Positions 32,815 to 46,342 of a DNA stretch of 64,000 bases are shown in pieces. The first letter of the stretch is position 1. Each line of letters opens with the position of its first letter. The notes under the pieces were generated by a model, which saw only the letters and a program-made list of their open reading frames with translations, ran no database searches and had not been told where the DNA came from. The DNA is from Acidimicrobiia bacterium (GTDB lineage: Bacteria; Actinomycetota; Acidimicrobiia; IMCC26256; PALSA-555): contig DASZJD010000080.1 in assembly GCA_035948415.1 (NCBI GenBank), forward strand, positions 2,306 to 66,305. The letters run 5' to 3'. A program made the position numbers and the translations under genes.

Positions 32815-33282
32815 GTGAGCGACAGCACGAAGGCGCCGGTCGGATCGCAGGCTCCGGACTTCACGCTCCCGCGATCGGGGGGCGGCGACGTGACCCTCTC
32901 CTCCTACCGCGGTCGCCCGGTGGTGCTCGCCTTCCTCCGGGGCTACGCCTGACCGTTCTGCCGGCGGCACCTCGCGCAGTTGCGCGACGACTACGAGCAG
33001 TTCCAGGGCGCAGGAGCCGAGATCCTGGCCGTGTCGGCGGAGCCGGCGCGTGCATCGGAGGCGTACCTCCAGTCGCATCCGCTGCCGTTCCCGACGCTGA
33101 TCGACGAGGACCACACCGTCTTCGACGCCTACGACGCCACGAGCCGACTGATCTCGCTCGGCCAGCGGCCCGCGCTCTTCGTCATCGACGGTGACGGGAT
33201 CGTGCGCTTCGACGAGGTCGGAGCGCAGCAGTGGAACATCCCCTCGAACCGCACGGTGCTGCAGGTCCTCGAATCCCTCTGA
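32815..33282 (+). CDS. peroxiredoxin-like (AhpC/TSA, CxxC-type 'PRX-like2') protein with in-frame TGA at 32950-32952; candidate selenocysteine codon or nonsense pseudogene
   Basis: GTG 32815 opens 45 codons 'VSDSTKAPVGSQAPDFTLPRSGGGDVTLSSYRGRPVVLAFLRGYA'. These are followed by TGA and then, in the same frame, 'PFCRRHLAQLRDDYEQFQGAGAEILAVS...ALFVIDGDGIVRF...'. The ORF track shows only the 3' part (32980..33282). Confidence 0.6.
32972..32987 (+). promoter_or_regulatory. perfect palindrome downstream of the in-frame TGA (candidate SECIS-like hairpin)
   Basis: TCGCGCA-GT-TGCGCGA. As RNA this gives a 6-bp stem with an AGUU loop, starting 22 nt after the U of UGA. Hand-folded only. Confidence 0.3.
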
Positions 33283-33321
33283 GCGGGGGCGGGTGGTCCC
33301 GCCGACGAGCCTCGAGGTCGC

Positions 33322-33798
33322 TCAGCCGCGGGGCGACGCTCCGGCCGGCACGGCCTCGACGTCCCTCGCGCCGACCCACTCGCCGCAGGCCGGACACGCC
33401 AGCTCGGGGTGCATGACCGTCCCGCATTCTCGGTGACGGAGCTGAACCGGCGGCTCCTCGCCGGCGTCCATCCACCGGTCGCCCCAGCGCAGCAGCGAGA
33501 CGATCACGGGGTAGAGGTCCAGGCCCTTCGGCGAGAGTCGGTACTCGTATCGGTCGGGGTGCTCCGAGTACCGGCGGCGCTCGAGGATCCCGTGCTTCAC
33601 GAGGGTCTTCAGCCGCTCGGCCAGCACCGGGCGCGGCGCGCCGGTCCGGGCCTGCAGATCCTCGAAGCGACGCGTGCGCATGAACGCCTCGCGCAGGATC
33701 AGCATCGTCCAGCGGTCGCCGACCACCGAGAGGGCCCGGGCGATCGAGCAGTGCTGGTCACCAATCTCGCTCCAACGCACCCTCGTGACCGTAGTCAC
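33322..33798 (-). CDS. HxlR-family transcriptional regulator with C-terminal Cys-rich extension
   Basis: 'CSIARALSVVGDRWTMLILREAF' is the HxlR signature. The C-terminus is 'HRECGTVMHPELACPACG'. Start set at GTG 33798, so only the last 158 codons of ORF 33322..34569 are used. Confidence 0.8.
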   Translation of the reverse strand: MTTVTRVRWSEIGDQHCSIARALSVVGDRWTMLILREAFMRTRRFEDLQARTGAPRPVLAERLKTLVKHGILERRRYSEHPDRYEYRLSPKGLDLYPVIVSLLRWGDRWMDAGEEPPVQLRHRECGTVMHPELACPACGEWVGARDVEAVPAGASPRG

Positions 33799-34018
33799 CT
33801 TGCGTTCGAAAAGCAAACCCACTAGGTTCTGAAGTTGAACCGAAGGGGAGGCCGCACGTGAGCGAGGAACCGGGACTGCGTCGTCAACGCCGCCACGGGA
33901 GTGGCCGCCGATGGCGCGCCCGGCGACACCGACGCACGGCCTCGGTCGTCGGCCCGGCCCCCTCGGGCCGACCGGCCCGGATCCACCACCGCGCTCACCG
34001 TGCCGGGGGAAGAAGCAG

Positions 34019-34501
34019 GTGAAGACGACCGATCTGAAGATCGACCTGCTGCGGTCGGTTCCCGGATTCGCCGACCTGAGCGAGCGCCAGCTCGCCCGGT
34101 ACGCACCGCTCTTCGACGAGGTCAAGGTCGCCGCGGGGGTGGTGCTGGCGCGCGAGGGCGAGGTCGGCCGCGAGCTGGTGGTCATCGTCGAGGGACGGGC
34201 CACCCTCGAGCGCCGCGGCGCGGCGAGCGAGGTGCTCGGCCCGGGCGCCTTCGTGGGCGAGACCGCCATCCTCGGCGAGGTGCCCCACTGGTCCAGCGTG
34301 GTCACTCGGACCCCGATGCGGCTCTTGGTGGCCGGTCGAGAGAGCTTCCGGGCGCTCGGCAGCGACCCCGACCTGCTCCGCCGGGTCGCCGCCACCCTTG
34401 CCACTCGGTTGCGGGCGGCGCCCGATCCGCACGGGACCGCCGCGCTCAGAAGCGCGCCCGCTCCCCCCGTGCGAGCCGGCGCGGCACCGACGTTCGCCTG
34501 A
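34019..34501 (+). CDS. cyclic-nucleotide-binding domain protein (no DNA-binding domain evident)
   Basis: GTG 34019 after 'gggggaagaag'. 'LLRSVPGFADLSERQL', 'GEVGRELVVIVEGRATL' and 'GPGAFVGETAIL' are cNMP-binding motifs. Confidence 0.7.
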   Translation: MKTTDLKIDLLRSVPGFADLSERQLARYAPLFDEVKVAAGVVLAREGEVGRELVVIVEGRATLERRGAASEVLGPGAFVGETAILGEVPHWSSVVTRTPMRLLVAGRESFRALGSDPDLLRRVAATLATRLRAAPDPHGTAALRSAPAPPVRAGAAPTFA

Positions 34502-34639
34502 GCGCACCGCGCGTTCCGCCTGGCGGACCGGTCAGGCTCCCCCACGGCTGCTCGCGAGCCGCCGGCCACCCCCGAGGCGGCCGCCAGGTCCGGCGCGAGT
34601 GGACGGCACGGCCCGGCCGGGGGGAGCCGGGCCGTGCCG

Positions 34640-43960: not shown

Positions 43961-44369
43961 CGAGCCGCCTCCGCCGCTTCGCCTTCGAGATGGTGTCAGA
44001 CACCGAGAGGGAGTGCCGGTTCCGGCGCCTGTCGGCACGACCTCGACGGTCGAACGAATCTCGGCTCGCTGGGAGGTCCTCCTCGGGCGCTCGACACGAT
44101 CGAGACGGGTCAGCACACTGTCTCGCCATGTCATCCCTGACCGCCGGGCGAGGCGCGGGCCGGACTCGCGATGGCGGAGGCCGGCCCGAACGCGGGCGGT
44201 GCGACGGCGCGCACCCTAGCCTGGAGGGGCCGGGCCCTACCTGGGAGGGAACCACGGAAACGACGACCGCCCCCTTCGTCAACTGGCAGTCCTGCTCGAG
44301 TGTCTTTGAGGAAGCGTCGTACAGGACACGTGACCTGGCCGGGAATCGGCCGGTCCCCTGACACAGCAC

Positions 44370-44729
44370 ATGGAGATTTTCAAGGAGTTCTCCTTCGAGG
44401 CCGCCCACCGTCTCCCGCACGTACCGGTCGGGCACAAGTGTTCTCGCCTCCACGGCCATTCGTTCCGCGTGAGCGTGCACATCGAGGGGCCGACCGGCGC
44501 GGAGACGGGGTGGGTACGGGACTTCGCGGACCTGAGCTGCGCGATGGAGCCCGTCCTGAGGCGGCTCGACCACTACTACCTGAACGACATCGAGGGACTC
44601 GACAACCCCACCAGCGAGACGCTGGCTCGTTGGATCTGGGAGCGGTTGCTGCCCGCGCTGCCCGGACTGTCGCAAGTCGTGGTGCGCGAGACCTGCACGT
44701 CGGGATGCGTGTACCGAGGCGAGCCGTGA
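44370..44729 (+). CDS. queD: 6-carboxy-5,6,7,8-tetrahydropterin synthase
   Basis: 119 aa. '[26 protein letters not shown]' and '[18 protein letters not shown]...[12 protein letters not shown]' are near-canonical QueD. Confidence 0.9.
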
Positions 44730-45412
44730 GTGCGCCCCGATCGGTGGATTCGGGCTCGGCGAACCGCGTCGCGGTCCTCTCGAGCGGCGGCCTCGACAGC
44801 GCGGTGCTCATCGCGGAGTTCCTGAAGCTGGGTCACGTCGTCCAACCCATCTACGTGCGGTTCGGCTTGGCCTGGGAGAAGGTCGAGGAGGAGCAGCTCC
44901 GGCGCTTCCTCGGCACGCTCCCTGGGCACCGAGCTCATCCCGTGCTCACGCTCGACTTCCCGATCACCGATGTCTACGGCTCACACTGGAGCGTGTCCGG
45001 CGATGACGTGCCGGATGCGACGTCCACCGACGACGCCGTGTACCTACCCGGCAGGAACCTGCTGCTGCTCGCCAAGTCGAGCATCTGGTGCGCGCTCCAC
45101 GACGTTCGCAACCTTGCGCTCGGGACGCTGAAGGGCAACCCGTTCGCCGACAGCAGCCGTGCCTTTTTCAGGATCGTCGAGTCGGCGGTTCATACCGCGC
45201 TGAACTTCGACCTCGAGGTGATCACCCCGTTCGCCGGGCTCACCAAGTCCGAGGTCCTCGAACGGGGGCGCGGTCTCGAGCTTCACCACACCTTCTCGTG
45301 CATCGACCCGCAGGGCGACCAGCACTGTGGGCGCTGCAACAAGTGCGCCGAGCGCCGGCGCGCGTTCGCAACGTTGGGGATCAACGACGGCACCCGGTAC
45401 GCGGCGCTCTGA
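44726..45412 (+). CDS. QueC-family PP-loop ATPase (divergent 7-cyano-7-deazaguanine synthase-like)
   Basis: GTGA overlap with queD. '[13 protein letters not shown]' PP-loop and the C-terminal 4-Cys cluster '[21 protein letters not shown]'. The central region reads '[16 protein letters not shown]' where, as I recall it, canonical QueC has 'CETDFSGYPDC'. Confidence 0.75.
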
Positions 45413-45430: not shown

Positions 45431-46342
45431 GTGACCGGGGTTTACGTGGCCCCGATCTCGTTCGGGTTGGGCGACCTCGTGGTGTCGTTGCCGGTCATCC
45501 AGGCCCTCGTCGCCGAAGGCCGTGCGGGGGGTCACGAGACGTGGGTGGTGGCGCGCTCGGTCGGACAGGCCCGGCTCGCCGAGCGCATCGAGGGCATCGC
45601 GGGGACGGTGTCCGAGGACGAATTCGATCCGACCCAGTGCCCAGGTCGCTTCATCGATCTTCGCGACCATCCCCTCCAGCGTGACTACTGGTGGGGCTCA
45701 CCGGAGTTCGAGGACGCGGTCGGGCCGTTGTCGATCAACGAGATCCTCGGCCGCATCAGCGCCGACTTCGAGATCAGCGCGGACTTCGGGCGCCCGGCTC
45801 CCTTGCTCTCGCACCCTCGACCAGAGGCCAGCGAGCAGGTCCTCTTCGTCGCCGAGACCGATGGGGCGACCAAGCGATGGGCCACCGAGCGTTGGGCGAC
45901 ATTGGCGGAAAGGATCGAAGCGCTTGGCGTCGAGGTCCGTCTCGTCACGCCAACGGCTGCGGACGGCGACATGCACGGAGCCGGCATTGAGCAGCTACGA
46001 GCCCCGAGCCCCGGCGACGCCGTGGATCTCCTCGGTGCCTGTCGCGCGGTGGTCGGCGTCGACACCGGCCTGACGCATATCGCGGTGCAACAGCGGACAC
46101 CGACGGTCACGATCTGTCGACAGCCGCCGACCTTCTTTCGGCCGTGGCCCCACTGTCGCGCCGTCGTCGGTCAGCGCTGCGACGACGTGTGCGCATCCCT
46201 CAACCGTGACCAGGCGTATAACGCACGGGTGAGTCTGCGTGGATTTCAATGGCGGCCGCGCGTCTGCCCGGTTGGAGCGCGCTGTCTGGATCCGATCCAC
46301 CCCGACCGCGTGATGGACGCCCTCCGGGAGCTCGAGTGGTAG
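45431..46342 (+). CDS. glycosyltransferase family 9-like (heptosyltransferase-type GT-B)
   Basis: The N-terminal 'ISFGLGDLVVSLPVIQAL' and C-terminal 'AVVGVDTGLTHIAVQQRTPTVTI' resemble GT9 motifs. It starts 19 nt after the queC-like stop. Confidence 0.6.
   Translation: MTGVYVAPISFGLGDLVVSLPVIQALVAEGRAGGHETWVVARSVGQARLAERIEGIAGTVSEDEFDPTQCPGRFIDLRDHPLQRDYWWGSPEFEDAVGPLSINEILGRISADFEISADFGRPAPLLSHPRPEASEQVLFVAETDGATKRWATERWATLAERIEALGVEVRLVTPTAADGDMHGAGIEQLRAPSPGDAVDLLGACRAVVGVDTGLTHIAVQQRTPTVTICRQPPTFFRPWPHCRAVVGQRCDDVCASLNRDQAYNARVSLRGFQWRPRVCPVGARCLDPIHPDRVMDALRELEW

Follow-up and report, generated by a model that had tools for sequence, protein, structure and literature searches.

The interrupted reading frame

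This study concerns a gene on the forward strand of a 64,000-nucleotide stretch of DNA from an Acidimicrobiia bacterium (contig DASZJD010000080.1; the whole stretch is referred to here as the window), which most probably encodes a peroxiredoxin (Prx)-fold selenoprotein with its selenocysteine (Sec) specified by an in-frame TGA. The complete coding sequence runs in one frame from a GTG start to a TGA stop at 33280-33282 (32815-33282, +; 155 residues). Its translation reads VSDSTKAPVGSQAPDFTLPRSGGGDVTLSSYRGRPVVLAFLRGYA*PFCRRHLAQLRDDY...LESL*, in which the sole internal stop is the TGA at 32950-32952 (+), the predicted codon of Sec46 (U46); this reproduces the peptide that an earlier, sequence-only reading of this DNA had deduced from a single 155-codon frame with one internal TGA. 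The TGA opens a U-P-F-C redox motif (U46 and C49; 32950-32961, +), recognized by alignment with Prx and CxxC proteins, and is preceded by 45 N-terminal codons (32815-32949, +) that are lost by gene callers and that, over the 42 codons next to the TGA, differ from those of relatives mostly in the third position. Downstream of the TGA, within codons L53-D58, lies a hairpin that resembles a bacterial Sec insertion sequence (bSECIS; 32972-32987, +). The palindrome TCGCGCA-GT-TGCGCGA, to which the same reading had drawn attention, was indeed found here, forming as RNA a 6-bp stem (32972-32977 with 32982-32987) with an AGUU loop (32978-32981).

The mechanical list of open reading frames (ORFs) holds, in this frame, only 32980-33282 (100 residues, TTG start), as had been reported, and the TTG start of this listed ORF falls within the hairpin loop. 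An in-frame TAG is located 12 nt 5' of GTG 32815, and therefore no longer N-terminus is possible; the ATG of the relatives (MSES...) aligns exactly with the window GTG. The N-terminus is hydrophilic (VSDSTKAPVGSQ...), with no hydrophobic segment. The window has a GC content of 70.9%, and a reassigned genetic code is ruled out, since TGA is the main ordinary stop, closing 18 of its 26 long ORFs; it closes this gene as well.

Conservation of the TGA and covariation of the hairpin

DNA of relatives was fetched from species-representative genomes and metagenomes, and the codon aligned to residue 46 was tabulated for 160 loci. The contig scans mostly returned distant PrxQ/AhpE genes, the close relatives among them numbering one from genomes and six from metagenomes. 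Of the 160 loci, 28 have TGA at this codon, among them all relatives with at least 43% identity. The relatives with TGA, whose identities spanned 82% to about 43%, belonged to metagenome-assembled genomes (MAGs) of Acidimicrobiia and Chloroflexi/Anaerolineaceae and to unclassified metagenome contigs; they comprise a clade of 75-82% identity (L081-L086 and the Acidimicrobiia MAG L001), one of about 50% (L087-L092 and the Chloroflexi MAG L002), the single L106 at 47%, and a clade of 43% (L093, L094 and the Anaerolineaceae MAG L003). The codon was likewise TGA in L161, a contig of 3.55 Mb, in L164, and in L165, L166 and L167, which represent divergent clusters formed at 50% identity. At each divergence level sampled, therefore, the orthologues carry TGA and not TGC, which bears out the proposal of a Sec codon as opposed to an allele unique to this genome; the hairpin, too, is kept and covaries, as described below.

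The protein databases record the same interruption in another form. In a search of 5.8 billion proteins, 119 of the best 120 matches (72-94% identity) were 100-108 residues long and covered only the C-terminal 65% of the query. The single full-length match among these 120, P0057, has Trp at the site, but its DNA (L164, 243-722) has TGA; the gene caller must therefore have used a code in which TGA is Trp. When the C-terminal 100 residues were searched by HMMER against 1.84 billion cluster representatives, 86 of the best 150 began at query residues 49-70, i.e., at the first usable start codon past the site. The site was spanned by 39 of the 150, of which 21 have Cys at residue 46 (P0130, P0215, P0207 and 18 others), and P0130 is a genuine Cys form of the same subfamily (FLRGFGCPFCCRH...SLGQRP...QQWEIP). 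Another representative, P0156 (175 residues), reads FLRG---PFWRRH at the site, with a deletion of three residues and the second Cys replaced by Trp; it is possibly a degraded copy, or else a sequencing or assembly error.

Translation upstream of the TGA is evident from the pattern of nucleotide change. Over the 42 codons 5' of the TGA, the window and L085 differ at 4, 5 and 23 sites in the first, second and third codon positions, respectively, corresponding to 22 synonymous and 4 non-synonymous codons, and the same mainly third-position pattern continues 3' of the TGA. Since the change in the 42 upstream codons is mostly synonymous, this segment is translated in the same frame.

The hairpin was examined first as a single sequence. 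It has a folding energy of -10.1 kcal/mol (z = -2.9 relative to shuffles). A perfect hairpin of 6 bp with a 4-nt loop, bearing G among the first two loop bases and located 16-37 nt downstream, follows 18 of the 1238 TGA trinucleotides of the window (about 1.5%). In the single sequence alone, the hairpin is thus suggestive and not decisive, and it is because of the comparative data that it is taken as more than chance. In all sequences of the UPFC/UPYC clade the hairpin stands at a constant distance from the TGA, and covariation was evaluated on an ungapped alignment (A2) of 19 distinct sequences, an earlier version having contained 16. The six proposed pairs showed standard pairing in 97.4% of the cells, as against 17-60% in the control in which the 3' arm was slid by 1-3 columns. 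Four of the six pairs had changed on both sides in compensatory manner, ten additional pair types were present, and the covariation score and the pair-type count were reached by none of 500 shuffles. Pair 31-42 is G-C, A-U, C-G, U-G or U-A, and is never unpaired; its 5' base opens a variable codon (Ala, Thr, Ser, Leu, Met or Arg), and its 3' base closes the codon three positions further on, which encodes Arg in most sequences but Ala or Thr in L166 and L164. L166 has the codons in exchanged order (CGC...GCG versus GCG...CGC), such that three consecutive pairs are flipped and the helix remains intact. Eighteen of the 19 sequences have an AGUU loop and the remaining one AGUC; in all 18 the loop Leu is encoded by TTG, a rare codon that makes up only 5.6% of the Leu codons in the coding ORFs of the window.

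The published model of the bacterial SECIS specifies a loop of 3-9 nt, an upper stem of 4-16 bp, a distance of 16-37 nt from UGA to loop, and a minimum free energy (MFE) of at most -7.5 kcal/mol, together with a G as the first or second loop base, mostly with G or U after it (PMC13188914). The window hairpin agrees with it on all four counts: its loop is AGUU (G, then U), its stem 6 bp, its spacing 25 nt and its energy -10.1 kcal/mol. The genes with an encoded Cys served as controls. In L168, L169 and L170, where the site is TGT, TGT and TGC, respectively, only 3-4 of the 6 in-register pairs form, the loop-closing pair is broken, the Leu codon is CTG, CTC and TTA, and the local folding energy is -6.8, -1.2 and -2.5 kcal/mol. 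The hairpin is lost in the Cys forms and therefore goes with the TGA, as expected for a role in Sec decoding. It is to be noted that L168 (501-956), the gene of P0130, retains a weakened hairpin at the same place, with AGCU as its loop and CTG as its Leu codon, and this looks like a decaying SECIS that followed conversion of Sec to Cys.

Further genes among the fetched loci also have TGA at or near this site. In a U-M-Q-C clade of Prx-like genes (L150, L007, L099, L104, L107 and L095) the TGA is at the same aligned position, and a C-AGUU-G loop with a GC stem is retained, its register being slightly ambiguous. Other Prx-like clades with TGA at this position, namely L042 and L040 (W-U-P-F-C, Poribacteria) and L121 and L120 (W-U-P-D-C), fold differently from the window hairpin. 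Lastly, two PrxQ-type genes, at about 1355-1370 of L146 (TPG*TLQ) and about 10118-10135 of L017 (TPG*RKQ), have TGA at the position of the peroxidatic Cys, and probably belong to the Sec-peroxiredoxins already known as the TxxU type.

Redox site, fold and gene neighborhood

For the family searches, Cys was placed at the TGA position of the window product. The Pfam domain AhpC-TSA (PF00578) matched residues 9-132 with E = 2.6e-33 over profile positions 1-123 of 124; the match runs end to end, and the domain thus spans the TGA. In alignments with PDB sequences, residue 46 corresponds to the first Cys of CxxC in Bacillus subtilis ResA and to the Thr/Ser of TxxC in BCP/PrxQ, whereas Cys49 corresponds to the second Cys of CxxC and to the peroxidatic Cys of PrxQ/BCP. 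The claim that the TGA occupies the redox Cys position thus held, both in ResA and in the Cys-form homologues, and the redox site of the protein carries a UxxC motif (U46-P-F-C49). A second residue of interest is Pro119 (codon at 33169-33171, +; GQRPALFVID), which is invariant in a 36-member family alignment and is predicted to be the cis-Pro facing the redox motif. In homologues translated from the fetched loci, its column holds the cis-Pro of WCxxC proteins resembling TlpA/ResA and the catalytic Arg of the PrxQ type. The signature of peroxiredoxins proper (PrxQ/BCP), consisting of PxxxT/SxxC and a catalytic Arg, is therefore absent: three of its four residues are replaced, the Pro of PxxxTxxC by Arg42, the Thr by Sec46, and the Arg by Pro119, and only the Cys is kept.

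The tertiary structure was approached through P0057, which is 53% identical to the window protein. Its AlphaFold2 model consists of one compact domain (predicted local distance difference test score, pLDDT, 93; predicted template modeling score, pTM, 0.90), in which the recoded residue directly precedes helix 49-60. The template modeling (TM) score of this model was 0.85-0.88 against the BCP/AhpE peroxiredoxins and about 0.71 against ResA. Going by the alignments and the homologue model, the protein combines a peroxiredoxin-like scaffold with a redox signature resembling that of the CxxC oxidoreductases. Of the earlier assignment to a Prx-like CxxC type, the Prx-like fold was upheld, whereas the active-site signature, UxxC with Pro in the cis-Pro column, is that of a thiol-disulfide oxidoreductase and not of a peroxidase.

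If the protein is a genuine selenoprotein, it could nonetheless be a peroxidase, in which Sec46 or Cys49 would attack the peroxide and the other residue would resolve the product. Sec is an excellent peroxide nucleophile. The best PDB matches in sequence and in fold are BCP, PrxQ and AhpE peroxiredoxins, Cys49 aligns with their peroxidatic Cys, and an Arg (R118) stands immediately before Pro119; this nearness of the overall fold to BCP/AhpE rather than to ResA speaks against an oxidoreductase, as does the fact that the choice between the two activities is drawn entirely from aligned motif residues. A peroxidase is, in turn, disfavored by the replacement of Arg42, Sec46 and Pro119 in the catalytic signature, by the UxxC-plus-Pro pattern typical of TlpA/ResA-type oxidoreductases, and by the literature name of this protein kind, 'thiol:disulfide oxidoreductase', itself given by prediction only. 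On these residues, reduction of a thiol-disulfide or other substrate appears favored over that of peroxide by about two to one, and we regard the peroxidase as a serious but unlikely alternative.

The genomic surroundings were also inspected. On the 5' side, and on the same strand, lies a beta-ketoacyl synthase gene; on the 3' side an HxlR-type regulator gene is convergent, beyond which come an ABC-2 transporter pair, a Zn-dependent dehydrogenase and a molybdopterin oxidoreductase. Comparison of the fetched loci found no conserved neighbors across clades, the HxlR regulator included, and the gene appears to stand alone, its neighborhood giving no hint of function. Between the convergent Prx-like and HxlR genes, 5 nt past the terminal TGA, there is a GC-rich hairpin (GGCGGG-UGGU-CCCGCC, 33288-33303) with no T-run. 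Its loop begins only 11 nt past the stop, too near for a bSECIS, and the element is possibly a factor-independent terminator of the high-GC type. The longest ORF of the HxlR gene (33322-34569, -) has 415 residues, with the HxlR domain confined to residues 282-369; an ORF of this length is likely an artifact of high GC, the actual regulator gene being probably much shorter. In the Chloroflexi-type clade of about 50% identity, a same-strand ORF, about 275 residues where complete, directly follows the gene in five loci (L002, 2818-3666; L087, 6471-7295; L090, 6219-7331; L091, 500-1333; L092, 1862-2281). In L166 (933-2303), a DoxX-family gene is located 5' of the Sec gene and a MarR-family regulator gene overlaps its stop, which hints at a redox or stress context.

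Proposed Sec decoding, its alternatives and the relation to known systems

Observed directly were a frame translated without a break, a TGA and a covarying hairpin that are both conserved, the pairing of Sec with Cys homologues, and the fold. In agreement with the sequence-only reading, the conserved TGA, the covarying hairpin and the Cys alignment support a Sec codon with a downstream bSECIS rather than a TGC-to-TGA nonsense mutation. We consider it about 90% probable, from comparative sequence evidence, that the internal TGA is a real Sec codon, that the gene is decoded through the hairpin, and that 32815-33282 encodes a cytoplasmic 155-residue selenoprotein of the AhpC/TSA fold with a U46-P-F-C49 redox center. 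In the mechanism that we propose, SelB carrying Sec-tRNA(Sec) would bind the hairpin at 32972-32987 during translation, its AGUU loop lying 25 nt past the UGA, and the UGA at 32950-32952 would then be decoded as Sec and not as stop. Sec46, placed immediately N-terminal to the active-site helix, would act as the nucleophile and form, with Cys49, a selenenylsulfide that would be resolved by a thiol reductant, e.g., thioredoxin. We infer this chemistry, as well as the SelB dependence of the decoding, the latter because the machinery itself was not seen.

Several results weigh against this interpretation. First of all, tblastn with the E. coli SelA, SelB and SelD proteins against the 64-kb window and every fetched locus retrieved only generic GTPases, and neither ARAGORN nor Rfam detected a tRNA-Sec there, the one tRNA of the window being a tRNA-Cys. 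The decoding machinery is thus assumed, not seen, in the window and the fetched loci; its absence there is uninformative about the whole genome. Support for it is only indirect, in that a complete Sec machinery has been reported in Actinomarinales, another order of the class Acidimicrobiia (bioRxiv 10.64898/2026.04.03.716425). Second, strict and relaxed scans revealed no second TGA-interrupted gene in the window. The strict scan flagged a TGA at 45410, which was rejected, as it is the stop of a QueC-like gene (44171-45412, +) with the next gene in the same frame (GTG 45431; 45431-46342, +), an arrangement that mimics a TGA-interrupted ORF; the further matches of the relaxed scan were all gene boundaries or antisense frames. 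The molybdopterin oxidoreductase, as the other potential selenoenzyme of the window, has Cys, according to the sequence-only reading alone. Third, the hairpin is short, the 86-nt region around it that had been suggested for folding does no better than its shuffles (z = 0.14), the 20-nt hairpin alone being exceptional, and Rfam gave no family match, even at permissive E-values. Finally, no NCBIfam model reaches its cutoff for the window protein. The best of them, the SelL-related redox protein NF040769, scored 72.2 bits (cutoff 120), and on the relatives it scored 50-99.6 bits, the maximum being in the 50% clade, with about 100 N-terminal positions of the 173 in the profile matching; the ResA-type NF002854 scored 68.7 bits (cutoff 170).

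An alternative is a UGA that is read through with no Sec, either by a near-cognate tRNA that inserts Cys or Trp with the hairpin as stimulator, or by a Sec machinery that delivers Cys when selenium is scarce. The machinery was not observed in the window or the fetched loci, and the evidence on the hairpin speaks for a functional RNA element and is silent on its binding partner. Nevertheless, the hairpin fits the SelB-type bSECIS model in loop size, loop G-U and spacing; the position is that of a redox-active Cys, at which proteins of this kind regularly exchange Sec and Cys; and the forms with an encoded Cys drop the hairpin, a loss that would make no sense if UGA merely stood for Cys. Read-through of this type is, in our estimate, improbable.

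Far less credible still is a pseudogene, i.e., a CxxC Prx-like gene with a recent TGC-to-TGA nonsense mutation and a palindrome that is a GC-rich coincidence. One base change would indeed suffice, about 1.5% of the TGAs in the window have a chance hairpin, the wider region folds like shuffles, and the Sec machinery was not seen in the window or the fetched loci. However, the same TGA recurs throughout the sampled relatives, as far as about 43% identity, and in the more divergent clusters, purifying selection has acted on both sides of it, and the hairpin covaries and is lost in the Cys forms. These relatives are not copies of one contaminant, as 18-57% of their residues differ. Equally hard to believe are two small genes, a 45-residue peptide ending at the TGA and a separate 100-residue protein from TTG 32980, although public gene calls do list the 100-residue ORF and, on one contig, also a 43-residue upstream ORF: the break would fall on the very active-site residue of one thioredoxin-fold domain, the Pfam match extends across the TGA, the full-length homologue model (pLDDT 93) is a single compact domain, and the 'start' varies among relatives (residues 49-70), being merely the first available start codon. 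Both the pseudogene and the split gene fail because of the conserved TGA, the fragment pattern, the synonymous upstream change, and the aligned ATG/GTG starts.

With the selenoprotein interpretation, the annotation of the gene is corrected from a 100-residue fragment that has no active site to a 155-residue selenoprotein. The same truncation affects most of the nearest public protein clusters (86 of the 150 nearest at 50% identity), and it prevails throughout the public databases because no curated NCBIfam or Rfam model covers the clade. The finding also implies a Sec-decoding trait, and hence a partly selenium-dependent redox metabolism, in this high-GC organism, whose closest relative among those sampled is an Acidimicrobiia MAG. 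The 19-sequence alignment represents an unusually clean, covariation-backed bacterial SECIS, and could seed RNA and protein family models for annotation. No new kind of system is revealed, and the result would not surprise a specialist. A bolder proposition, which we put forward as tentative, is that the clade constitutes a distinct, predominantly Sec-containing Prx-fold subfamily, not covered by curated models and marked by the signature FLRG-x-x-U-P-F-C-R-R-H / SLGQRP / QQW-x-IPSN. Its carriers are Acidimicrobiia-like and Chloroflexi genomes as well as metagenome contigs, and its family-specific bSECIS would be the C-AGUU-G tetraloop hairpin, encoded by an invariant Gln-Leu(TTG). The chemistry of such a subfamily may differ both from that of the classical Prx and from that of the classical CxxC proteins, with Sec replacing the Prx Thr and the peroxidatic Cys kept.

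Comparison with known systems places these features in context. Like the SECIS of the E. coli fdhF type and the bSECISearch consensus, the window hairpin is a stem-loop in the coding region past the UGA, with a small loop containing G and then U, a spacing of 16-37 nt and an MFE of no more than -7.5 kcal/mol; unlike the fdhF type, it is confined to a compact 6-bp stem and a tetraloop, a conserved lower stem being absent, and we regard it as a candidate SelB site. The oxidoreductases of the ResA/TlpA/CcmG type (e.g., B. subtilis ResA, PDB 1st9 and 3c71) have a CxxC-type motif at the same position, its first Cys aligning with U46, and also a Pro in the cis-Pro column. ResA/TlpA/CcmG-type proteins are membrane-anchored or exported. 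Their motif is WCxxC, whereas the window protein has no N-terminal anchor or export signal, contains an insertion before the Pro, and is nearer in fold to BCP/AhpE. PrxQ/BCP and AhpE (PDB 5enu, 3hjp, 5epf and 1xvw) offer the closest fold (TM 0.85-0.88) and the best PDB sequence match (2e-17), Cys49 aligning with their peroxidatic Cys. They and their Sec form, 'Prx TxxU', differ in that the Sec of the window protein is at the Thr position and not at the peroxidatic Cys, with Pro in the Arg column and Arg for the Pro of PxxxTxxC. The SelL-related proteins (NF040769) and the eukaryotic and aquatic SelL share the Prx-like fold and a redox motif at the same position, but the SelL motif is UxxU and that of the window protein UxxC, with a NF040769 score below the 120-bit cutoff.

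The nearest relationship is with the 'Prx-like thiol:disulfide oxidoreductase' selenoproteins ('Prx-like 1', PF00578, UxxC), which have been catalogued in surveys of prokaryotic selenoproteomes and in reviews (PMC1794560, PMC2398784, PMC13188914; exemplar WP_010940744.1). The bacterial survey of 2006 listed eight members of this Prx-like family, mostly in Deltaproteobacteria (PMC1794560), the GOS data provided 225 Sec sequences of 'Prx-like 1, pfam00578, UxxC' (PMC2398784), and a 2026 review describes the Prx-like family (UxxC or UxxU) as 'predicted with high confidence' (PMC13188914). The window protein resembles them in its PF00578 domain, in Sec as the first residue of UxxC, in the in-frame UGA with a bSECIS in the coding region, in having Cys homologues, and in a function that is only predicted. 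It differs in that the published members are mainly from Deltaproteobacteria, whereas its own clade is found in high-GC Acidimicrobiia-like and Chloroflexi genomes, carries its own signature, and scores below every NCBIfam cutoff. The gene is thus best described as a putative unannotated member, or subclade, of the known Prx-like UxxC kind, an assignment made from the PF00578 domain and the UxxC motif.

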